From the NCBI RefSeq assembly GCF_056746865.1, contig NZ_CM163382.1: 64,000 nt of DNA. One strand, given 5' to 3'. Below are positions 22,405 through 64,000 of the stretch, in pieces. How positions within the stretch are numbered: position 1 is the stretch's first letter; the number at the start of each line of letters is the position of its first letter. The notes beneath the pieces were generated by a model. It was not told where the DNA came from, searched no databases, and saw nothing but the letters and a program-made list of their open reading frames with translations. The translations under genes and the position numbers were made by a program.

Positions 22405-23112
22405 TGCGCCTATAAGGCTCTCTTACCAGCCGCGCCCTAACAGGCGCACACGATCTGACATTTGCATCCAACTTCGTTACTTACGGCCCGTAAACGGGCT
22501 GCCCGGATAGGGAATCGATAACTGCTCTCCCATTTTATCCTCTTCAAGCTGGTGCTTTATGTAATCCTGTATCTTCGCCGTGTTCTTACCCACTGTATCG
22601 ACGTAGTACCCTCTGCACCAGAACTCCCTGTTCCTGTATTTGAATTTCAAATCACCAAACTGCTCGTAAAGCATCAGACTGCTTTTCCCTTTCAGATATC
22701 CCATAAACCCGGATACGCTCATTTTAGGCGGGATCTCCACAAGCATATGGATATGATCTGCACAGCATTCAGCTTCCAGAATCCGTACGCTTTTCCACTC
22801 ACACAGCTTTCTCAAAATACTGCCTATTGCTCTACGCTTCTCTCTGTAGAACACCTGTCTTCGGTATTTTGGCGCAAAAACTATGTGATATTTACAGTTC
22901 CATCGGGTGTGCGCTAAGCTCTTTTCGTTCCCCATTGGGACCCCCTTTTGATTTCTTGTTTGACACTTGCAGTTGCCAGACCGCAAGGTGTTTTAACAAA
23001 TCAAAAGGGGTTTTAATAACTGGCTCAAAGCTGAAAGCTTTCCGGAACCCCCAGCCTAGCTGGGGGTTTTCTGTGCACAAAAAACCCTCTGTAGTAACAG
23101 AGGGTTTTGTTC
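22405..23112 (-). mobile_element. IS200-like element (IS200/IS605 family); boundaries approximate
   Basis: About 708 bp containing tnpA with an RBS-sequestering stem (22942-23013) and terminal hairpins near 23040-23108; it is unclear whether the outermost hairpin belongs to the IS or to the host. Confidence 0.55.
22477..22935 (-). CDS. tnpA: IS200/IS605-family transposase TnpA (HUH-type)
   Basis: 152 aa from MGNEKSLAHTRWNCKYHIVFAPKYRR with the HxH motif (DHIHMLVEIPP) and catalytic Tyr region; the ORF track begins at a longer upstream start. Confidence 0.85.
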   Translation of the reverse strand: MGNEKSLAHTRWNCKYHIVFAPKYRRQVFYREKRRAIGSILRKLCEWKSVRILEAECCADHIHMLVEIPPKMSVSGFMGYLKGKSSLMLYEQFGDLKFKYRNREFWCRGYYVDTVGKNTAKIQDYIKHQLEEDKMGEQLSIPYPGSPFTGRK

Positions 23113-25372: not shown

Positions 25373-27775
25373 TCATTCAGACTCCAGCAACTCTATCCTG
25401 GCGAGAAGCGCTTCATATTTATCAAGTAATCGAGAGTAGTTCCTTCGTTGCATTGCAGCTTCCATTACCAACATTTCTTCATAACGAATGCCGTAACGGG
25501 AACCAGCTTCTATAGCAGGAGTGATTACCTCACCGGTTTCATCATCTATGACGGCAGGAGTGTCACCCCATTCATCATAACAGATGAAACCAAAGCGATG
25601 AGCATCAAGACCATGCCTTTCGAATGCCTCCACGTACCGTTGAGCAATGGCGCCGAAGTGCCAGCGGGCGCCATCAGCGCCTTTTTCTTTAATCCTATCC
25701 AGATACTTATACTGGACTAGCTGAACCTCTTCTGCGGCATCGAGAATGGCATCAGTCATTAGTAATGGGTCTGATTTGCAAATGGCATCTGACGTGATAG
25801 TGAACGCCGTTTGAGTGAATCCACCAGACCACGGAAACGAACTTGCCCCGCAAGGATAGGTATTTGCCGTGGCAGGACGTATTTGCTTCACAGCAAATAC
25901 GTGCGACGTCATTTCTGCTGTACCAGAACCCGTAACGCCGGGATCTCCACCAGAGACACGTAAAATCCCTGTAGGGACAGATGAGTCCGTCGATGAATAA
26001 AAGCGAATCTGCTGTGCTTCTGCAACACCAGGGTTACATAGCTTAATAGCTTTAGTTGTGAACGCATTAGTATCCGTATCAAATATCCAGTATCTGTTGT
26101 TTGAACCACCATCTATAATAACGTTCGCAAGAGATACACCAACTCGCTGTATATTAGAAATATTGTTAGCATTAGTACCAGCAGTTAACTGAATACCCCT
26201 TGTGCAATTATTTACACGCGAGTTACTAATAGTATTATTAGCAGCAAATCTAGTGCCAGCGGTATTTCCTGTCAGGAGAGTATGCGTAGTGTCCTTACTG
26301 AAGCCTGTCAATAACACCTCATTATTAGTGAACGTACCGTACTGAGCACATGATTTAAAACCGATATAAGGTGTGGTTAAATCCTCAGGAATACCATTCC
26401 ATACCATACAAAAGTTATCTGTAATTACACTATGGTTTCCTCCATTGTTAGACAAATCACCCAACTCTACAGCACTTATGGAAGTATTGAAGTGGTTATT
26501 TGTAACCTGGAACAGGTTACCAACATTGTTTTCAGAAACAACTCCGCGGCGACCAGCAATGATATGGTTACCGAAAACCACAACACCTTCGGTATCGTCA
26601 TGCGCGTACATGAAGGTGTCGAAGTTCTGATAAGAACCATTGACAATATTGATATTCTTTGTTGAGTACAGGTCGAATATTTTACCCATTCGATATGCTG
26701 GTACAGATGTTCCTCCACCAGTTACGTTAACGCCGTCAAATACACACTGACCAGCTCTGCTTAGCTTAAAGACAGTATCAAAAGAGGATTGAGTACCAGC
26801 ATCATTTGACACATCCAGGTCACGAACGATAAGTTGTCGGGCGTATTCGATTCCCCCTGTCCCTAAAAACGTAAGCGCAGTACCCTGAAGTTGCCCGGTA
26901 GCTTTTATCGTGAAATTACGTAAACCAACAGGTTTTCTTACTACAGTCGTACCCGAGTTATCAATGATAAGACCATATCCAGCAGCAAATTTTATTCCGC
27001 ATGTAGCCATGCTTACGCCAAAAACATCACTATAAAAATTAGTTACTGAGATGTCGCTTGAGCAGTTGTATATACGACGAAGCTTAATATCTAGACCAGT
27101 TTCCTTTGCTGCAGTAAAGGCATTGATCAGTGCCAAGGTATCATCAGCATCACCTCCAACAGCGCCAAAATCCTCAGGAGTGAGTGATTCCCTCATTTTA
27201 TCCTGGAACGTTCGGTATACTGCCCCATAACCATACTGAATAAACCAACCAAAACCACCAACAACCCCGGCGATTGCAGCATCGACATAATTACGCATTG
27301 AGCGATTATTTACAGCGTCCTGCTCAAGTGATGGATCTGCAAGGTTAGAAATTCTGTTTTGCTTTGCATCGTAATATTTTGCAAGCAAAGATGGTTTCAT
27401 CAATGCACGTCTGAACCACCCAAAACATTGCTGGATCAGCATCGTCAGGTAGTCAAAGGCATCTTCATGCACTTCGGGAAAAAACTTTCCCTGATTGCGA
27501 AGGTCTGTCTCCTGTACTACATCAAGCACACGATCTATCGTAATTCGCCATCCAGTAGCAAGCGGAGACGGAAGAACCACAGAACCGCCACTATAAGTGC
27601 CCGCCCCAGTTACCGTATAACCGGTATCCAGAACCAATTCTGTTACGTTCCCGTTCAGGTCAGACACCTGAACAACCAGGTCTGATTTTCTGAAAATTCG
27701 AAAAGTATACGGAAACGATGTCGTAACGCCGTTACCTGTGTATTCGTTGTGGTCAACTTCGGTTGAGACCGTCAT
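25373..27775 (-). CDS. tail fiber / tailspike with C-terminal intramolecular-chaperone (peptidase S74-like) domain
   Basis: 800 aa; central region rich in N/G/T/S repeats typical of beta-helix receptor-binding domains; C-terminal segment resembling the auto-cleaving chaperone of endosialidase-type fibers. Confidence 0.75.
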   Translation of the reverse strand: MTVSTEVDHNEYTGNGVTTSFPYTFRIFRKSDLVVQVSDLNGNVTELVLDTGYTVTGAGTYSGGSVVLPSPLATGWRITIDRVLDVVQETDLRNQGKFFPEVHEDAFDYLTMLIQQCFGWFRRALMKPSLLAKYYDAKQNRISNLADPSLEQDAVNNRSMRNYVDAAIAGVVGGFGWFIQYGYGAVYRTFQDKMRESLTPEDFGAVGGDADDTLALINAFTAAKETGLDIKLRRIYNCSSDISVTNFYSDVFGVSMATCGIKFAAGYGLIIDNSGTTVVRKPVGLRNFTIKATGQLQGTALTFLGTGGIEYARQLIVRDLDVSNDAGTQSSFDTVFKLSRAGQCVFDGVNVTGGGTSVPAYRMGKIFDLYSTKNINIVNGSYQNFDTFMYAHDDTEGVVVFGNHIIAGRRGVVSENNVGNLFQVTNNHFNTSISAVELGDLSNNGGNHSVITDNFCMVWNGIPEDLTTPYIGFKSCAQYGTFTNNEVLLTGFSKDTTHTLLTGNTAGTRFAANNTISNSRVNNCTRGIQLTAGTNANNISNIQRVGVSLANVIIDGGSNNRYWIFDTDTNAFTTKAIKLCNPGVAEAQQIRFYSSTDSSVPTGILRVSGGDPGVTGSGTAEMTSHVFAVKQIRPATANTYPCGASSFPWSGGFTQTAFTITSDAICKSDPLLMTDAILDAAEEVQLVQYKYLDRIKEKGADGARWHFGAIAQRYVEAFERHGLDAHRFGFICYDEWGDTPAVIDDETGEVITPAIEAGSRYGIRYEEMLVMEAAMQRRNYSRLLDKYEALLARIELLESE

Positions 27776-27894: not shown

Positions 27895-27956
27895 TTTGCA
27901 AAACGTGCTGGATAGCAAACAAATTATTTGCTACTGTATAAATATACAGTTATTGC

Positions 27957-28229
27957 ATGGAGAAGATTAAGATGCAGCAGTATCACTATCCACTGGAAGA
28001 CGGATTTACCGAAAGGATTCACACGCCGGGAGGCGTCAGGTCACTGGTGGAGGGATCGCACTTGATGAAATTACTCCGGGATCTCGATAAGGATGGATTT
28101 AATGTCGATGGCCCACTTGCCGAACTGACTGCACTGATTAACTACGTCACCAGCTCACAGATGTCTATGCGGGATCTGCAAACACATCTCGACTATTGTG
28201 CCGAACAATTACGAAAACAAACCCGGTAA
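27957..28229 (+). CDS. hypothetical small protein (moron candidate)
   Basis: 90 aa (85 aa from the second ATG at 27972, which has a GGAGAAG Shine-Dalgarno); opposite strand to all neighbouring late genes; followed by a hairpin at 28237-28252. Confidence 0.5.
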   Translation: MEKIKMQQYHYPLEDGFTERIHTPGGVRSLVEGSHLMKLLRDLDKDGFNVDGPLAELTALINYVTSSQMSMRDLQTHLDYCAEQLRKQTR

Positions 28230-45159: not shown

Positions 45160-45236
45160 GTGGCATTAGCTCAGCTGGACAGAGCAACCGCCTTCTAAGC
45201 GGTTGGTCGCAGGTTCGAATCCTGCATGCCACGCCA
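45160..45236 (+). tRNA. tRNA-Arg, anticodon UCU (reads AGA), prophage-encoded
   Basis: Manual cloverleaf: acceptor GTGGCAT/ATGCCAC, D-stem GCTC/GAGC, anticodon stem ACCGC/GCGGT with loop CTTCTAA, T-arm GCAGG-TTCGAAT-CCTGC, discriminator G and CCA end. Confidence 0.85.
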
Positions 45237-54476: not shown

Positions 54477-55061
54477 ATGAAAAGTATCCAGGACGTCCGC
54501 AGGCAAAATCTCAACGACTTGATCGACCGTGAATTCAATGGTGTTCAGACGCGGATGGCAGAAAAACTTGGAACTCAGGCAAATCTGGTAAACCGCTGGG
54601 CTCTTGGCAAGAAGGTTATCGGCGACCAGGTTGCGCGAAAAATTGAAGCTGCCGCCAATAAACCCCGTAACTGGCTTGATATCGATCGCTCGCTTTCTCA
54701 GGAAGGTTTTCAGCCTGTCGGCCCAAGCGACATTGGTCAGCTGGCGGCTCACAACCTGGAACGCTGGATGAGCGAAAGCCGCGACCTTTCAACACAGGGA
54801 AAACTTCACCGCGCATCCGGCGTCGCCCAGGTGACAATCAGCCGCCTGTTAAACAATGAGGTCAGCGTTTCCATTTCCACCCTGGAGAATGTTGCATCCG
54901 CATTCGGGCGTCACGGATATGAACTACTGATTCACCCGCACGACCCTGCGACTATCAACTATGACCGCTCACGCTACGCATTGTTACCCGAAACCGAGAA
55001 AGCAAAGATCGAAAGTTACATTGAATTTGTCATCAACCAGAACGAAAAAAGCAAACAATAA
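54477..55061 (+). CDS. CI-like repressor with two XRE-type HTH domains
   Basis: 194 aa; two HTH-like segments (QTRMAEKLGTQANLVNRWALGKK and RASGVAQVTISRLLNNE); divergent from the cro-like gene. Confidence 0.6.
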   Translation: MKSIQDVRRQNLNDLIDREFNGVQTRMAEKLGTQANLVNRWALGKKVIGDQVARKIEAAANKPRNWLDIDRSLSQEGFQPVGPSDIGQLAAHNLERWMSESRDLSTQGKLHRASGVAQVTISRLLNNEVSVSISTLENVASAFGRHGYELLIHPHDPATINYDRSRYALLPETEKAKIESYIEFVINQNEKSKQ

Positions 55062-55372: not shown

Positions 55373-56407
55373 ATGAGTGAATTATCAATCATCGAAATCA
55401 CACCAGACATGGCACCAAGAATTTACGTTGAAAAAGGGCTGGAAAAGTTTCTCGAGCAGATCCGTGAAGGTGTTAATGAAGTGCCTGACATTAGCACAGA
55501 CAAAGGCAGAAAGCGCATTGCATCTCTGGCTGCGAAGGTTTCAAGAAGTAAAACAGCGGTAGAAAAACCAGGACGTGATTATCTGAAACGCCTGAAAGAA
55601 CAGCCGAAAGTAGTTGAAGCAGAGTTACGACGCTTCGTAACCGAATGCGATCGGCTTCGTGATGAAGTACGCCGCCCACTCACCGAGTGGGAAAATGCTG
55701 AGAAATTACGCACTGAAGCACTGCAACAACGCCTGACAAATTTGCGAGCACTAGCTGACGTGATCGATCTCTCCGGAAACTACTTGCCATCATCTGATAT
55801 TCAGGAACGAATTCAAGAGGCTAAATCAGTAGCACTTGATGAAAGTTGGCAGGAGTACGCAGCAGAAGCTGGAGTAGCCAAGGATTCAACCATCAAGAAA
55901 CTGGAAGAATCACTCGCAGTAGCTCAAAAACGCGAGCATGAAGCCGCTGAGCTGGAGCGACTTCGCAAAGAAGCGGAGGAAAAAGCGCGCATTGAGCGAG
56001 AAGAGAATATCCGACGGGAAGCTGCTGAACAGGCCAGGCTCGAAGCTGAACAAAAAGCGAAAGCTGAAATTGAGGCTGCGGCACGCCTGGCGGCGGAAGA
56101 AAAAGCACGTGCTGAAGTAGCAGAACGTCAGCGAATTGAAGCAGAGCAGCGTGCACGACGCGAAAAAGAAGAAGCCGTTGCCGAGGAACGCCGACGCCAA
56201 GAGGCGGCAGAAAAAGCCCGCCTTGACGAACAGAAGCGTATCGCCGACGAAGAAGCGCGCCGAGCTGCAGATAAAGAGCATCGCCGTACCGTTAACCGCA
56301 GAGTAATCGCAGATCTGATAGCCCAAGGCATTCACGAAGAATTCGCGCAGAAAGCAATGTTGGCTATCGCTGGCGGCAAAGTGCAGGACGCGTATATCAA
56401 ATATTGA
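55373..56407 (+). CDS. coiled-coil protein with TolA-like Glu/Ala/Lys/Arg-rich repeats
   Basis: 344 aa; long low-complexity helical region (EAEQKAKAEIEAAARLAAEEKARAE...); first gene of the recombination operon. Confidence 0.5.
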   Translation: MSELSIIEITPDMAPRIYVEKGLEKFLEQIREGVNEVPDISTDKGRKRIASLAAKVSRSKTAVEKPGRDYLKRLKEQPKVVEAELRRFVTECDRLRDEVRRPLTEWENAEKLRTEALQQRLTNLRALADVIDLSGNYLPSSDIQERIQEAKSVALDESWQEYAAEAGVAKDSTIKKLEESLAVAQKREHEAAELERLRKEAEEKARIEREENIRREAAEQARLEAEQKAKAEIEAAARLAAEEKARAEVAERQRIEAEQRARREKEEAVAEERRRQEAAEKARLDEQKRIADEEARRAADKEHRRTVNRRVIADLIAQGIHEEFAQKAMLAIAGGKVQDAYIKY

Positions 56408-58817: not shown

Positions 58818-59117
58818 GTGAGAAAGTTAAGCCGACTTGAAAAATATCACATGAATAAGGTTTCAATGCGCAGTCCGTCAAAGATTGTCGCCGTTACTCC
58901 TGCGGCGATAGAGATCGAAAAACGCGCGATTGAAAGAGAGAAAAAAGGGCAGTTCCGCATTGCCGCTCACCTTTGGCTTCAGTGTATGGATGTTGCTTCT
59001 GGTGATGTTGAGCGTGCAAGGATCGCGGTTCGCAGGGACCAATGTATCACAAAAGGTAACGGCCTTCGCCGTGGAGACTATAGCGGTATAGGATGTTGCG
59101 GGGTGGTTTATGACTAA
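58818..59117 (+). CDS. hypothetical protein, translationally coupled to the methyltransferase
   Basis: 99 aa; its stop overlaps the methyltransferase start. Confidence 0.4.
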   Translation: MRKLSRLEKYHMNKVSMRSPSKIVAVTPAAIEIEKRAIEREKKGQFRIAAHLWLQCMDVASGDVERARIAVRRDQCITKGNGLRRGDYSGIGCCGVVYD

Positions 59118-59760
59118 GAAATACACACTAATCTATGCAGATCCACCCTGGGTATACCGGGACAAAGCCGCAGATGGTAATCGCGGTGCCGGTTTTAAAT
59201 ATCCGGTTATGAGTGTGATGGATATCTGCCGCCTTCCTGTGTGGGATTTGGCCGATGAAAACTGTCTGTTGGCCATGTGGTGGGTGCCAACACAACCACT
59301 CGAAGCACTAAAAGTTGTTGAAGCCTGGGGGTTCCGTCTGATGACCATGAAGGGCTTCACGTGGATAAAATGTGGTAGTCGACAACCAGATAAACTGGTT
59401 ATGGGTATGGGACACATGACTCGCGCCAATAGTGAAGATTGCCTGTTTGCAGTTAAGGGAAAACTACCTCCGCGCATTAATGCAGGGATCGTTCAGTCAT
59501 TTACCGCACCGCGGCTTGAGCATTCAAGAAAACCAGATGTCGTTCGTGAAAAACTTGTGCAATTGTTAGGCGATGTTTCTCGCATTGAACTGTTCGCCCG
59601 CCAGACGTCTCATGGCTTCGATGTTTGGGGTAATCAGTGCGAAGACCCGGCAGTGCAACTACACCCCGGATACGCGTTGGATATTGGCGGATTAACAAAT
59701 GCATTCAGCAATGCTCCGCTGTCACCAACAGACAACCAGGGACGGGAGCGTGCAGCATGA
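59110..59760 (+). CDS. MT-A70 family N6-adenine DNA methyltransferase (orphan)
   Basis: 216 aa; catalytic DPPW motif (LIYADPPWVY); no adjacent restriction endonuclease gene recognised. Confidence 0.75.
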   Translation: MTKKYTLIYADPPWVYRDKAADGNRGAGFKYPVMSVMDICRLPVWDLADENCLLAMWWVPTQPLEALKVVEAWGFRLMTMKGFTWIKCGSRQPDKLVMGMGHMTRANSEDCLFAVKGKLPPRINAGIVQSFTAPRLEHSRKPDVVREKLVQLLGDVSRIELFARQTSHGFDVWGNQCEDPAVQLHPGYALDIGGLTNAFSNAPLSPTDNQGRERAA

Positions 59761-60005
59761 AGCAGATTATGGTTGCACACAACGGCGTCAGGTTTGAAGT
59801 CGTCATGGTTTTGACTAAGTTCCACAATGATGAGGTATTGCACAGAAAAGAAACTGTAACTTACCGTTATAAACACCGCAGTTCAGCTGTTAGAAAATTA
59901 CGGAAGATTGCGGAAGAACTAAAAAATGATCCTCATCGTGTTATTGAGGTAAAAGGCAACCCATATAAAATCAAAACTTCAGTGGAGCTAAGACATATGC
60001 AATAA
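59757..60005 (+). CDS. hypothetical small protein
   Basis: 82 aa from the ATG at 59757, overlapping the methyltransferase stop (ATGA). Confidence 0.4.
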   Translation: MKQIMVAHNGVRFEVVMVLTKFHNDEVLHRKETVTYRYKHRSSAVRKLRKIAEELKNDPHRVIEVKGNPYKIKTSVELRHMQ

Positions 60006-60329
60006 AATCACGCCTGACGAATCGCGATTATCTCGCTATTGGTATTGCAGAGATTGCTGGACTCAATGGCGCATGATTTGACAATGCCGCCAGAGCTATC
60101 GCATACTGACCGCACTAGAAAACAAACAGCGGTCATCCGCACCCGATAGCTTTGCGGCTTTTTTATGCCTGCAATCTGGCATAGTCACATCCGTACAAAG
60201 GTCGGGTGGAGAGGCGTAATACAACACCCGAAAGGGGAATATGCCCGGAGCTACTGTTTGTGCTCTAGTTGACACCCGATCACCAGCTACTAACTGGTTT
60301 TCGTAACTAAAAACAAACAGGAGGTCATC

Positions 60330-60980
60330 ATGACCAGTCAACTCATCCCCGTATTCAACGGCACTATATCCAACGAAACCGCTCTTCTCGTTAATGCCCG
60401 TGATTTACACACTTTCCTCGATGTGGGTAAGCGATTTGCTTCGTGGATTGTCGAACGAATTGCTGAATATGGTTTCGTTGAAAATCAAGACTTTATGATT
60501 ATTTCCCAAGTTCGGGAAAAAATAGGCAGAGGCCGTCCTGCAAAAGACTACCACCTCACCCTCGATACAGCCAAAGAGCTGGCGATGGTCGAGCGTAATG
60601 AAAAAGGTCGTCAGGTACGACGCTACTTCATTGAATGCGAGAAACGTTTAAGACAACAAGAAACAAAAGTGGAGAAGGTCTTGTCAGGCTTCATGCCCGC
60701 CATTATGGAGGCGATCAAGCTGGAAGACAAAAAAGAATACAGTGCCCCACTGAAGCCCGGCTACCGCAGCCTGATTCACTCGCCGTCTGGTGTTCTCGGC
60801 CTGACGGAGCACTCACTGCTGATGAATCTGCTGAACCAGTTACAGGACGACGGGCACGACGTATCGGGCGCGGCGGCGGAGCTGACCACCATGTTCTGCT
60901 ACATCGTCGGTGTGAGCAAATGCCTGCGTGATATCCAGACTCACGCGGAGTACATCAACGACAAGGCAGGATTCTTCTGA
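60330..60980 (+). CDS. antirepressor-like protein (Ant/Bro-N-type N-terminal domain), function uncertain
   Basis: 216 aa; strong Shine-Dalgarno (AGGAGG) and TTGACA at 60259-60264; N-terminal region resembles phage antirepressor families. Confidence 0.4.
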   Translation: MTSQLIPVFNGTISNETALLVNARDLHTFLDVGKRFASWIVERIAEYGFVENQDFMIISQVREKIGRGRPAKDYHLTLDTAKELAMVERNEKGRQVRRYFIECEKRLRQQETKVEKVLSGFMPAIMEAIKLEDKKEYSAPLKPGYRSLIHSPSGVLGLTEHSLLMNLLNQLQDDGHDVSGAAAELTTMFCYIVGVSKCLRDIQTHAEYINDKAGFF

Positions 60981-61011
60981 CGGCGGCGGCACAGGGATGT
61001 GCCGGGCAAAA

Positions 61012-62262
61012 TTATTCCCCCGCCATCCACTTCTCAAACTTCGACGGGGAGAACGGAATCAGATCCGTATGCTCCCCGTTAATCCAGGAATCAATCATAT
61101 CGGACCACTGCTGCAACATGTAGGCGCGCTGTCTGGCGTATTCCGCTTTGTTATATACGGCGCGCACACCTTTCTGCTCATGTGCCAGAGCCTTTTCAAT
61201 CCAGTCTGAAGGATAACCAGCCTCATGCAACAACGTACTGGCTGTACGGCGCATATCGTGTACGGTGAAGTCCTGAATATGCTCACCATCTTCATTTATT
61301 ATTTTCACCGTTCTGTCGATCAGAGAGTTCAGCGCGGCATTAGATAATGGCTTCCGGAAGTTGTAACGACCAGGAACCAGATATTCACTTCCACCAGCGC
61401 ACATCTGCAACCCAACCAATATATCCTGAGCCTGTTTAGGCAGGTAAATAACGTGCGCCCGGCTTCCCTTCATGCGGTCTGAAGGAATTGTCCATGTCCA
61501 TTTTTTAAAATCTATTTCGTCCCACGTTGCATTAGTGAATTCGCCTTTACGAACCATAGTGATAAGCACCAGCTTTAAAGCCATTTTCATAGTGCCCATA
61601 GCACCAATGGCATCCAGCGTGCGGAAGAACAGGCCAATTTCTTCTGGTGTCAGTGTTCGCTCTCGTGGTTTAAATATGGCGATAGACGAAGGTTTAATGT
61701 CAGCCGCAGGATTAAACAAACCATGACCACGGTCATTGGCGTGACGGTATACGCTACTGATGATCTCCCTGGCCTGCACTGCTGTTGCCCGGCCACCGCG
61801 TTCGACAATCCGGTCACACAAATCACGAACCATCGATGTGGTAATTTCAGCCATCATTTTATTGCCAAGAACCGGAAGTATGTCACGGTCGATCACCGCC
61901 TGTTTCATTGCGCGGGTACTGTCAGCCAGGATGACGTGTTTCATATAACTGTCGGTATGTACCGCAAACGTCTCGGCACCACGAATCTTTTTGATACCGT
62001 CACGTTTAGCCGCAGCCGGTGACTGGCCTGCTTTAAGCAGCTTCTTTGCAGCAATCAGTTCTTCTCGCGCTTCTGCCAGGCTGATACCGTCACGCCCATA
62101 CTGCCCGATTACCAGTGTTTCGCGGCGACCGTTGATACGGTAGTCATAGCGAAACGAGACCGTGCCTGACGTAAGCACAGCTACATACAGCCCGTCACGA
62201 TCGGAGACCTTGTACAGTTTGTCCTGCGGCTTGAGGTTTTTTAATTTTGTATCGGTAAGCAC
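61012..62262 (-). CDS. int: tyrosine integrase (P4-like, with N-terminal arm-binding domain)
   Basis: 416 aa; N-terminus MLTDTKLKNLKPQDKLYKVSDRDGLYVAV typical of arm-type DNA-binding domains; C-terminal catalytic region (HDMRRT...AHEQKGVRAVY); adjacent to the att repeat. Confidence 0.85.
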   Translation of the reverse strand: MLTDTKLKNLKPQDKLYKVSDRDGLYVAVLTSGTVSFRYDYRINGRRETLVIGQYGRDGISLAEAREELIAAKKLLKAGQSPAAAKRDGIKKIRGAETFAVHTDSYMKHVILADSTRAMKQAVIDRDILPVLGNKMMAEITTSMVRDLCDRIVERGGRATAVQAREIISSVYRHANDRGHGLFNPAADIKPSSIAIFKPRERTLTPEEIGLFFRTLDAIGAMGTMKMALKLVLITMVRKGEFTNATWDEIDFKKWTWTIPSDRMKGSRAHVIYLPKQAQDILVGLQMCAGGSEYLVPGRYNFRKPLSNAALNSLIDRTVKIINEDGEHIQDFTVHDMRRTASTLLHEAGYPSDWIEKALAHEQKGVRAVYNKAEYARQRAYMLQQWSDMIDSWINGEHTDLIPFSPSKFEKWMAGE

Positions 62263-62303
62263 AATTCACCCGTATAGAAACCATTTTCATGACGGTATGA
62301 GAG

Positions 62304-62318
62304 TATACCTTTAAGGTA
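62304..62318. promoter_or_regulatory. operator-like repeat ATACC-TTTAA-GGTAA upstream of the integrase gene
   Basis: About 42 bp upstream of the int start, between int and guaA. Confidence 0.4.
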
Positions 62319-62387
62319 ATACCGTCACCTGTACCGACGAAAAATATGGTGTAGAGTGAATAGAAATGAATACATAAAAACAAAAAC

Positions 62388-62412
62388 CCTCTGTAAAAAC
62401 AGAGGGTTGAGT
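62388..62412 (-). terminator. hairpin AACCCTCTGT-N5-ACAGAGGGTT downstream of guaA, probably the guaA terminator supplied by the prophage arm
   Basis: Perfect 10-bp stem followed by a T-run on the guaA-coding strand; a near-identical hairpin lies at 23080-23108 at the other prophage end. Confidence 0.5.
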
Positions 62413-62450: not shown

Positions 62451-62467
62451 TTAATCATTCCCACTCA
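62451..62467. repeat. attR candidate: 17-bp direct repeat AATCATTCCCACTCAAT overlapping the guaA stop codon
   Basis: Identical to 23131-23147; encodes the last guaA codons (..IEWE-stop) on the minus strand. Confidence 0.6.
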
Positions 62468-64000
62468 ATAGTCGCTGGTGGCTTGCCGCTGATGTCATAC
62501 ACCACGCGGGAAATACCGTTCACTTCATTGATAATGCGGTTGGAAACGCGACCGAGGAAGTCATACGGCAGGTGCGCCCAGTGTGCGGTCATAAAGTCGA
62601 TGGTTTCGACAGCACGCAGAGAAACAACCCAGTCATACTTACGACCATCGCCCATTACACCAACGGAACGTACCGGCAGGAAGACGGTGAACGCCTGGCT
62701 GACTTTGTCGTACAGGTCCGCTTTACGCAGTTCTTCAATAAAGATGGCGTCAGCACGGCGCAGCAGGTCGCAGTACTCTTTCTTCACTTCGCCCAGTACA
62801 CGAACGCCGAGGCCTGGTCCCGGGAACGGGTGACGGTACAGCATGTCGTACGGCAGGCCCAGCTCCAGACCAATCTTACGCACTTCGTCTTTGAACAGCT
62901 CTTTCAGCGGTTCAACCAGCCCCATCTTCATCTCTTTCGGCAGGCCGCCCACGTTGTGGTGAGATTTGATGACGTGTGCTTTACCGGTTGCAGATGCGGC
63001 AGATTCAATAACGTCAGGGTAGATAGTGCCCTGCGCCAGCCACTTCACGTCTTCCAGTTTCAGTGCTTCTTCATCGAATACTTCAACGAAAACGCGCCCG
63101 ATGATTTTACGTTTTGCTTCCGGATCGTTTTCGCCGGCCAACGCTGACAGGAAGCGAGCTTCTGCCGGAACGTGAACAATGTTCAGACCAAAGTGATCGC
63201 CAAACATATCCAGAACCTGCTCTGCTTCGTTGAGACGCAGCAGGCCGTTGTCGACGAATACGCAAGTCAGGTTTTTACCGATAGCGCGGTGCAGCAGCAT
63301 TGCGGTTACGGAGGAATCCACACCACCAGAGAGGCCGAGGATGACTTTATCGTCGCCTACCTGCTCGCGGATGCGAGCTACGGCGTCGTCGATAATTTTC
63401 GCTGGCGTCCACAGGGCTTCACACTGGCAGATATCACGCACAAAACGCTCCAGCATGCGCATACCCTGGCGGGTGTGAGTCACTTCCGGGTGGAACTGTA
63501 CGCCATAGAAGCGTTTTTCTTCGTTAGCCATAATGGCAAACGGGCAGCTTTCGGTGCTGGCTACGGTGACGAAGTCGGACGGGATAGCGGTAACTTTATC
63601 GCCGTGGCTCATCCAGACATCGAGCAGCGGTTTACCGTCTGCGGTCAGCGCATCTTCGATACCGCGAACCAGTGCGCTGTCGTTTACGACTTCAACCTGC
63701 GCGTAGCCAAATTCACGTTCGTTAGAGGCTTCAACGTGACCGCCCAACTGCATTGCCATGGTCTGCATGCCATAGCAAACGCCGAATACCGGTACGCCTG
63801 CTTCAAAGACATACTGCGGCGCGCGCGGGCTGTTTTCTTCGGTGGTGCTTTCCGGGCCGCCGGAAAGAATAATGCCGCTTGGGTTGAAGTCACGAATTTG
63901 TGCTTCTGTCACATCCCACGCCCACAGTTCGCAGTAAACACCCAGTTCACGCACGCGGCGCGCAACCAGTTGAGTGTACTGAGAACCGAAGTCCAGAATG
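62455..64000 (-). CDS. guaA: GMP synthase (glutamine-hydrolysing), 3' portion; N-terminus lies beyond the window
   Basis: C-terminal ATP-pyrophosphatase domain (SGGVDSSV P-loop) and part of the glutamine amidotransferase domain; reading frame runs off the right window edge. Confidence 0.9.

Follow-up and report, generated by a model that had tools for sequence, protein, structure and literature searches.

What kind of gene stands between the recombination genes and the integrase gene (int) of a phiV10-like prophage, and what controls it? The window analysed here, 64,000 nt of contig NZ_CM163382.1 (assembly GCF_056746865.1), contains a phiV10/epsilon15-like (Uetakevirus) prophage integrated adjoining guaA. 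Its open reading frame (ORF) at 60330-60980 on the plus strand, here called ant, begins with ATG and encodes 216 aa, as an initial annotation made from the letters alone had recorded. That annotation described the DNA before the gene as non-coding, suspected a separate promoter there, considered the assignment of the protein to an antirepressor family weak, and saw in the location a common site for accessory or defence cargo. In this study, we find that it overlooked the main feature of the locus, a c4-like antisense RNA of the Rfam family sRNA-Xcc1 with duplicated, co-varying target boxes, one of which lies over the ribosome-binding site of ant. We consider it fairly probable that 60072-60990 forms a self-contained, horizontally mobile cassette within a cargo slot, in which this RNA would gate the antirepressor (Ant) and keep it off in the lysogen.

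Leader RNA and target boxes

The gap from the stop codon of an 82-aa ORF to the ATG of ant (60006-60329) does measure 324 bp and holds no plus-strand ORF of at least 40 aa, but the term non-coding does not fit it, as it contains an RNA gene that scores above the Rfam gathering score. The match to RF02221 (sRNA-Xcc1) runs from 60200 to 60289 and covers the model from 1 to 87 of 87 with 64.8 bits (gathering score 53; E=4.8e-11 locally, 2e-9 over the whole window). The structured small RNA itself spans 86 nt on the plus strand (60200-60285). A closing stem (60200-08/60273-81) encloses hairpin 1, which has a GAAA loop, and hairpin 2, whose stem (60247-51/60262-66) carries the specificity loop at 60252-61; a linker (60267-72) and a 3′ tail ACCA (60282-85) complete it. 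This is the consensus fold of sRNA-Xcc1, a closing stem around two hairpins of which the first has a ACCCGNAAGGGG apex, and the RNA folded alone has a minimum free energy structure identical to that of the family (-33.5 kcal/mol, z=-3.2).

Loop and leader are complementary on the same strand. ACAAACAG, with which the loop CUGUUUGU pairs, occurs both at 60122-29 and, overlapping the Shine-Dalgarno sequence, at 60313-20; loop and 3′ side of hairpin 2 together (CUGUUUGUGCUCUAGU) are complementary to two copies of a target box. The upstream, a1/b1-like copy (60114-60129, plus strand) consists of an a-box ACTAGA (60114-19), AA, and the b-box ACAAACAG (60122-29); in the repeat search it is a direct repeat of 60306-60329 and shows 88% complementarity over 16 nt to RNA positions 60254-60269. 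The downstream, a2/b2-like copy (60306-60324, plus strand), complementary to RNA 60248-61 in the same search, reads ACTA (60306-09), AAA, ACAAACAG (60313-20) and runs into the Shine-Dalgarno sequence AGGAGG at 60319-60324. Lying 5 nt ahead of the ATG, the latter is as strong as had been noted.

A promoter for ant had been sought in a TTGACA at 60259-60264. The hexamer is absent there; direct search places it at 60078-60083 and at 60269-60274, the second with an offset of 10 from the earlier position. At 60269-60274 (plus strand) it is made up of the linker and the first bases of the closing stem of the RNA, where other cassettes show TTTCGAACC and similar, and it does not qualify as a promoter, sitting in structured RNA with no acceptable -10 hexamer at 16-18 nt. 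Of the two copies the promoter scan accepts only that at 60078, as part of a candidate sigma-70 promoter at 60078-60107 (plus strand; TTGACA-18 nt-CATACT; predicted start at about 60114) which is the best site in the region, with 10 of 12 matches. This site is unchanged in HEMP4, 933W, F039 and E. coli 2015C-3101. By eye, a promoter-like -10 appears at the same relative place in the divergent cassettes of Rac-SA53, Lyz12581Vzw and VHML; of these, only VHML and the first Lyz cassette show a -35 as well. As judged from sequence, 60078-60107 is the likely promoter of the cassette and travels with it into unrelated phage backgrounds. Thus a promoter belonging to the gene itself is very probable, as proposed earlier, but likelier here than at the hexamer then cited. 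No LexA or other obvious operator was found at this promoter.

Between the upstream boxes and the RNA, the T-run TTTTTT at 60159-64 completes a terminator-like element (60086-60164, plus strand) that can adopt a short stem (60137-41/60153-57) or a long one (60086-101/60144-58). We recognise it from the sequence, an inverted repeat (I3) and the fold of the whole leader; the terminator consensus scan did not list it. The hairpin is long and stable for a transcript coming from upstream and short for one that starts at 60114. Because the long stem is confined to transcripts from upstream, and the short stem belongs to those from 60114, we infer that the terminator insulates the cassette from the early-left operon yet is leaky for the cassette's own promoter. 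Its loop CACCCGATAG (60140-60149) is similar to CACCCGATC (60273-60281), the closing arm on the 3′ side of the RNA, and could pair with the 5′ arm. Such pairing, considered for CACCCGA at 60140-46, was set aside as it fails by eye in Rac-SA53 and P1.

A further small hairpin, seen in the folds, lies 3′ of the RNA at 60282-60298 (plus strand; ACCAG/CTGGT), the RCCA tail forming its 5′ arm. Its arms co-vary by eye: GCCAG/CTGGC in 933W, CACCAG/CTGGTG in F039, CACCACA/TGTGGTG in the second Lyz cassette (Lyz-b) and GCCACC/GGTGGC in VHML. It may mark the 3′ end of the RNA or a processing site. A tiny ORF at 60241-60306 (MPGATVCALV...) lies entirely within the RNA and was rejected as unsupported.

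Co-variation across cassettes

Seven cassettes from named phages (933W, F039, Rac-SA53, two of Lyz12581Vzw, VHML and that of the window) each have an sRNA-Xcc1 match just upstream of an antirepressor-type gene. In these and in P1, loop and both b-boxes differ between cassettes and match within them, and the a-boxes behave likewise; a hairpin with T-run equivalent to the terminator-like element is present between upstream boxes and RNA in seven of seven, and in P1. Aligned over 290 nt, the leaders of five elements (window, HEMP4, E. coli 2015C-3101, 933W and F039) have a mean column identity of 93%, and their changes concentrate in three short patches, b1, loop and b2, which shift together and stay matched. 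HEMP4 has the same Ant as the window, but carries the F039-type triplet CTTTGAAG/CTTCAAAG in place of CTGTTTGT/ACAAACAG. As the gap is nearly invariant save for these three co-varying patches, we take it to be under selection as an RNA element.

The pattern extends well beyond these phages. Scanning IMG/VR with the invariant hairpin-1 core returned at least 120 stretches, which yielded 84 distinct cassettes with 69 distinct loops. For the segment from loop to linker, the mean duplex energy with the upstream site is -16.4 kcal/mol for cognate and -11.1 kcal/mol (standard deviation 2.9) for non-cognate combinations, and with the downstream site -14.6 versus -9.7 kcal/mol. At each side, 56 of the 84 cassettes have their cognate site within the top 5% of the ranking, a statistic that is inflated by the relatedness of the cassettes and gives no clean probability. 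Predicted binding is tighter at the upstream site in 59 of the 84. From the end of the downstream b-box to the start codon, 67 of 76 cassettes have a spacing of 0-15 nt, with a mode of 9 nt.

The structure is held by compensatory change as well. In hairpin 2, each pair shows 21-38 double compensatory changes (74 sequences). From MAFFT alignments of 74 RNAs, RNAalifold recovered both hairpin 2 and the hairpin 1 apex, but the misalignment of two length classes kept it from finding the outer stem. A script that examined this stem directly, against a shuffle control, found 56 distinct variants among the 84 cassettes, with compensatory changes. RCC follows the RNA in 73 of the 84, and most RNAs start with G. 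The downstream genes are almost always of Ant, Bro, KilA-N or Rha type: 60 of the encoded proteins gave 49 Pfam matches to Ant-type N-domains (Bro-N, 11; KilA-N, 11; ORF6N, 8; P22_AR_N, 7; Rha, 7; AntA, 5).

Of 5426 complete E. coli genomes, 381 contain the 264-bp leader. No RNA feature accompanies the match in the E. coli RefSeq records listed, while the GenBank record of F039 (LC710660) already annotates 'sRNA-Xcc1' beside an antirepressor. Tandem arrays also exist. Lyz12581Vzw has two consecutive RNA and AntA cassettes whose loops differ, the first AntA being cut to 95 aa; on one IMG/VR contig two RNAs lie 240 nt apart, and Xylella has five such RNAs in a row (PMC12189769).

The antirepressor and its presumed target

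Domain and structure searches, which the initial annotation had suggested as a check, gave strong matches in Pfam, in PHROG and to PDB 5D50, with nothing significant from a Foldseek search of the model. The N-terminal domain, described earlier as antirepressor-like, is Pfam PF08346 AntA/AntB: residues 21-90 align with profile positions 1-68 of 68 at 97.3 bits (cut-off 27; E=8.2e-28). PHROG 377, 'anti-repressor Ant', covers residues 1-210 (E=3.9e-66), and residues 135-211 resemble chain E of PDB 5D50, the SPC32H antirepressor crystallised with its repressor (E=1.8e-13). These values are those of a strong family assignment, not of the weak one first supposed. The C-terminal part is a homologue in sequence and fold of the SPC32H-type Ant (PDB 5D50 chain E; PHROG 450), a helical domain of about 80 residues. 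Homology to a characterised antirepressor thus holds for the C-domain, and the additional AntA domain means that the protein is not such an antirepressor and nothing more. In an AlphaFold2 model (mean predicted local distance difference test score, pLDDT, 83.9) a mixed strand/helix N-domain (8-87) is followed by a long helix (91-131), a disordered linker and a C-terminal helical hairpin (152-213); the AntA domain has a KilA-N/APSES-like winged-helix fold. Pfam at E<=1 matches AntA only, with no P22_AR_N, P22_AR_C or KilAC 'ANT' domain. Hundreds of E. coli contigs encode the identical protein, and without exception it bears the name AntA/AntB or phage antirepressor Ant. By its sequence, then, the gene is an ordinary, well-assigned antirepressor paralogue.

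A defence or toxin assignment was considered for the proteins of the cassette and rejected. PADLOC-DB 2.0 at E<=0.01 holds no defence family for this Ant, for the second antirepressor described below or for an 82-aa neighbour, NCBIfam has no match for Ant, and no toxin domain or small hydrophobic peptide was found in the cassette. There is no support for a defence function, because PADLOC gave no match.

The gene is a mosaic. From 60078 to 60643, a stretch that takes in the leader, AntA domain and beginning of the long helix, it is 84% identical to Shiga-toxin (Stx) phages such as 933W, and its 3′ part (60705-60990) is 87% identical to the C-terminus of the 'anti-immunity' gene p23/p22 of phiV10, which carries the same C-domain at its own ant locus. 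In phiV10, p23/p22 combines a Bro-N N-domain with an Ant-like C-domain and is split by a frameshift in the deposited genome; the last 29 residues of Ant in the window are matched at 100% identity by the downstream fragment, p22.

The presumed target of this protein, as far as homology indicates, is the prophage repressor Rep (54477-55061, plus strand), a homologue of SPC32H Rep (5D50_A, E=3.5e-42) that is 99.5% identical to phiV10 Rep. The SPC32H Rep-Ant pair was reportedly described by Kim & Ryu in 2013 and Kim et al. in 2016; Ant is said to bind Rep and to dissociate the Rep tetramer from the operator. A second, resident antirepressor is encoded elsewhere in the prophage (27932-28229, plus strand), where a perfect LexA box, TACTGTATAAATATACAGTT at 27932-51, precedes a 90-aa ORF (27957-28229). 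Its product is 87% identical to SPC32H Ant (E=1.6e-46) and 43% identical to the C-domain of the cargo Ant, and would presumably act on the same Rep. Near the cargo gene, between 60000 and 60330, there is no LexA box, and hence no LexA-controlled promoter of the SPC32H type. The prophage has two antirepressors that are wired differently, the resident one under LexA (SOS) and the cargo one probably under the RNA.

Relation to known RNA-controlled systems

Citron & Schuster reportedly set out the P1/P7 immI region in 1990, with its c4 antisense RNA, its a1b1/a2b2 sites and icd-ant. The window has the same layout: promoter(s), a1 b1, hairpin with T-run, a structured RNA of about 80 nt, a2 b2 at the ribosome-binding site, and an antirepressor gene, so that the RNA is flanked on the same strand by two box copies of which the downstream one lies at the ribosome-binding site ahead of ant. 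The topology of c4 is shared too, with its long closing stem, hairpin 1 with tetraloop, hairpin 2 with long loop (b′), single-stranded linker (a′) and 3′ RCC. As regards sequence family, however, the two differ. The P1 region matches Rfam C4 (68.8 bits), c4-a1b1 (51 bits) and, below threshold, isrK (35 bits), whereas the RNA of the window belongs to sRNA-Xcc1; membership in C4 (RF01695), c4-a1b1 (RF03163) or isrK (RF01394) was considered and rejected, with no match at E<=5 in 59600-61100 of the window. The a and b boxes are contiguous here (2 nt apart) versus 22 nt in P1. No icd- or orf45-like leader ORF lies between RNA and ant, the box overlapping the Shine-Dalgarno sequence of ant itself. 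Ant is unrelated to P1 Ant1/2 in domain content, and no C1-type operator is seen at the promoter. Variation of the loop sets specificity in P1, which is heteroimmune with P7 through c4 (PMC12197685).

The isrK-STnc1160-orf45-anrP locus of Gifsy-1, in which read-through past the end of a short terminated RNA yields an mRNA for an antirepressor-like protein, and the short RNA both switches on translation of that mRNA and promotes induction (Hershko-Shalev et al. 2016; PMC4825925), offers a second likeness. In both, a promoter is followed by a short RNA reaching to a leaky Rho-independent terminator, and read-through would give a processed stable RNA and a translationally silent antirepressor-like mRNA; the short RNA is complementary to the downstream RNA and switches translation on in Gifsy-1, where the locus controls prophage induction. 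They differ in that the isrK model has no match in the window, that translation is coupled via orf45 in Gifsy-1 whereas here the gene's own Shine-Dalgarno sequence lies under the box, and that a discrete short RNA is only putative here.

With the Rep-Ant system of SPC32H (PDB 5D50/5D4Z) the prophage shares the epsilon15-like family, a homologous Rep and the short, 87%-identical Ant with its LexA box; the cargo protein differs by an extra N-part of 130 residues (AntA and long helix), by its locus, and by having an antisense RNA instead of LexA. The closest relatives of the cassette are in Stx phages (933W ST933Wp80, VT2-Sakai H0160, P13374 antB1 and F039), with promoter, boxes, terminator, RNA and AntA domain in DNA that is 82-84% identical. 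They differ in loops and boxes, in position (the 933W cassette adjoins attR) and in their C-domains, that of 933W being unrelated and those of F039 and Lyz distantly Ant-like. P22 sar/ant, P4 CI RNA and N15 CA RNA/antC resemble the proposal in that a small RNA silences an antirepressor or lytic functions during lysogeny, and sar covers the ribosome-binding site of ant (PMC12197685, PMC10732415). However, sar is transcribed from the opposite strand as a true cis-antisense RNA, the P4 and N15 RNAs act on transcription termination, and none of the three has a sequence or Rfam relation to the RNA of the window. The 24B_1 RNA of Phi24B, said to regulate d_ant, was considered as a homologue and rejected: its locus, lom to vb_24B_43, is not beside ant and has no sRNA-Xcc1 or C4 match. 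That region does have a sub-threshold match to Rfam sok (38.4 bits; gathering score 59; E=1.7e-5), which hints that the 24B_1 locus may derive from a hok/sok-type element.

Proposed mechanism and alternatives

From the observed complementarity and co-variation we infer the following course of events. Transcription from the constitutive-looking promoter at 60078-60107 would give, in order, the target-box copy, the leaky terminator, the 86-nt tRNA-like structured RNA and the ant mRNA. The loop and 3′ side of hairpin 2 would pair with ACTA..ACAAACAG at the ribosome-binding site and hide the Shine-Dalgarno sequence of ant, blocking translation in cis and, once the RNA is cut out, also in trans, including that of the ant of an incoming phage with the same loop. 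Excision is probably by RNase P, which processes c4 (PMC5320573, citing Hartmann 1995); the 5′ GGU, the closing stem and the 3′ RCC(A) are the corresponding features. Accumulating after excision, the RNA would keep Ant off in the lysogen. The upstream copy, predicted to bind the RNA at least as well as the downstream copy, could act as competitor or decoy and free the ribosome-binding site, either on the same precursor or as a released, short terminated RNA of about 50 nt. Ant, once made, would bind Rep through its C-terminal helical hairpin as SPC32H Ant does and lift repression, with the N-terminal AntA (KilA-N-like) domain adding DNA binding or oligomerisation. The hypervariable loop would set immunity specificity, as c4 does for P1 against P7.

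Several observations weigh against this account. The identity of the C-domain to characterised or resident Ant is only 38-43%, so binding to this particular Rep is not assured; the types of Ant do not follow those of Rep, since SPC32H Ant and the resident Ant share 87% identity and Rep is far more diverged from SPC32H Rep; and the phiV10 gene bearing this same C-domain is frameshifted. For the RNA, the likeness to c4 is one of architecture alone, the relatedness of the 84 cassettes qualifies the rank statistics as stated above, and the short form of the terminator is weak in the fold of an RNA starting at 60114, which makes a discrete short decoy RNA uncertain. Finally, the controlled protein need not be an antirepressor, as sRNA-Xcc1 of Xanthomonas precedes a symE toxin gene in integron cassettes (bioRxiv 10.1101/2025.06.18.660453).

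How, then, do other explanations fare? In one, the RNA acts mainly in trans on genes of the host or of other phages, as first reported for sRNA-Xcc1 and proposed for 24B_1; its neighbourhood to ant would then be incidental. To judge by a title cited in PMC12189769, sRNA-Xcc1 was first described from Xanthomonas as a trans-acting RNA under HrpG/HrpX; its Xylella homologues are abundant in vesicles (PMC12189769), and A. baumannii has many c4-like RNAs without obvious ant genes (PMC5320573). A hypervariable loop with 69 variants in 84 cassettes that always matches its own two flanking sites points instead to a private, cis-linked target rather than a conserved host target, and the downstream site keeps a fixed distance from the start codon, which leaves this alternative decidedly unlikely. 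We regard as highly improbable the simple case of a stand-alone accessory or defence gene with a weak antirepressor resemblance, driven by the nearby TTGACA across a gap that is only a spacer. It would suit a slot that varies among relatives and contains defence-like genes in some of them, and a gene preceded by a terminator-like element and a strong Shine-Dalgarno sequence; against it stand the lack of a -10 partner for a hexamer lying within structured RNA, the strong family matches together with the empty PADLOC and NCBIfam searches, and a gap that is near-invariant outside three co-varying patches.

Control might alternatively be exerted on transcription, the RNA pairing with its two sites and causing a premature stop before ant, like P4 CI or N15 CA RNA. 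In P1, blocked translation of icd is said to have a polar effect on ant, which would count in favour. So would the T-run at 60159-64 after the first site and, after the RNA, the small hairpin with UUUUCG (60282-60302), as well as the behaviour of P4 CI RNA, which finds its pairing partners, seqA and seqC, upstream and downstream of its own sequence and causes termination (PMC4825925). However, the downstream box overlaps the Shine-Dalgarno sequence of ant, no leader ORF and no good terminator lie between RNA and ant, and the UUUU after the 60282-98 hairpin is not kept in 933W or F039; we think this quite unlikely. Unlikely, too, is a toxin-antitoxin-like or kill module, in which an AntA/KilA-N-type protein would be harmful (like P1 KilA/Icd, Gifsy-1 AnrP->AntQ or SymE) and the RNA, as its antitoxin, would serve to abort infection or to stabilise the prophage. 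Formally, a stable RNA blocking translation of its neighbour is like a type I system, the symE arrangement mentioned above fits (bioRxiv 10.1101/2025.06.18.660453), expression driven by IsrK is toxic (PMC4825925), and genes for many KilA-N, Bro-N and ORF6N proteins of putative antirepressor activity lie behind the same RNA scaffold. But the C-domain is homologous to a crystallised Rep-binding antirepressor and a matching Rep is present, there is no toxin domain, small hydrophobic peptide or PADLOC match, and the cassette occurs in viable phages, e.g. HEMP4 and 933W. None of these alternatives accounts for private targets that co-vary and keep a fixed distance to the start codon, together with the Rep/Ant homology, as well as the antisense-gated antirepressor does.

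Implications

Antirepressors gated by RNA are classical (P1/P7 c4, P22 sar, N15 CA, Gifsy-1 IsrK), and sRNA-Xcc1 is already in Rfam. Control of this kind nevertheless seems not yet to have been described for the sRNA-Xcc1 family; a 2025 review of phage small RNAs (c4, sar, IsrK, 24B_1) makes no mention of such a role in the parts that treat antirepressor, c4 RNA and IsrK. Our reading would give this widely auto-annotated family, a 'virulence' small RNA in Xanthomonas, a concrete job, namely c4-like gating of antirepressor-type genes. The RNA stands ahead of such genes in many temperate phages, including the Shiga-toxin phages 933W and VT2-Sakai, in which antirepressor control bears on toxin-phage induction, and the three-patch co-variation supplies ready-made natural compensatory mutants. 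For the window, the outcome is more modest: an ordinary antirepressor paralogue, in a prophage with one LexA-controlled and one probably RNA-controlled antirepressor.

A more far-reaching idea, which we offer tentatively and consider doubtful as it stands, is that sRNA-Xcc1-family RNAs are not 'virulence sRNAs' but provide the specificity of a phage immunity system that is very large and diversifies rapidly. The private match of loop, decoy box and box at the ribosome-binding site would then determine, like a bar-code, which phages can silence the Ant-type effectors of one another, and the cargo cassette would be both a second, SOS-independent route to derepress a phiV10-type Rep and an inter-phage weapon. 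If this were true, a superinfecting relative with another loop, e.g. HEMP4, would escape the resident RNA, make Ant and induce the resident prophage, and the short upstream RNA would be a built-in anti-sRNA timing the switch.

Prophage context

The cassette lies in a variable cargo slot at 59762-61011, which contains an 82-aa ORF and the ant cassette. phiV10 is homologous up to 59761 and again from 61012, the stop codon of int, and the interval between is therefore a replaceable slot. It adjoins the early-left operon (exo/RecT/AlpA/PerC/MT-A70) on one side and int on the other. phiV10 fills it with a 193-bp DUF1382 gene only, abutting int, and other relatives with a Ser/Thr phosphatase, a DGQHR/Dnd-like protein (SPC32H and SPNIS2) or serotype-conversion genes; the isolated phage HEMP4 has the same arrangement as the window. 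The earlier view of this location as a cargo site thus holds for this phage family, whereas a defence function for what it carries here has no support, PADLOC having no match. Among 5426 complete E. coli genomes, 22 match at least 80% of a 3.4-kb query (window 59000-62400).

The 82-aa ORF (59757-60005) takes the place of the phiV10 DUF1382 gene; it belongs to PHROG 9805 (unknown function) and is without a PADLOC or NCBIfam match. On the far side of the slot, a P4-type tyrosine integrase is encoded on the minus strand (61012-62262), 98.6% identical to phiV10 int and annotated in RefSeq in the same prophage of E. coli GF43; it adjoins guaA (62455-63954, minus strand).

Three further features lie at a distance from the cassette. 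An Hfq-binding RNA, Rfam STnc490, matches at 22945-23068 on the minus strand (146 bits; gathering score 56), left of a tail-fibre/tailspike-type gene (25373-27775), and may be at or past the left prophage end. A tRNA gene at 45160-45233 (plus strand) lies in the prophage between the portal and terminase regions and is annotated as tRNA-Arg in the near-identical prophage of GF43. Between Rep and the exonuclease gene, an ORF at 55373-56407 (plus strand) encodes 344 aa rich in Glu, Ala, Arg and Lys and highly charged; GF43 and phiV10 have small ORFs only at this place, which marks it as a further variable spot.

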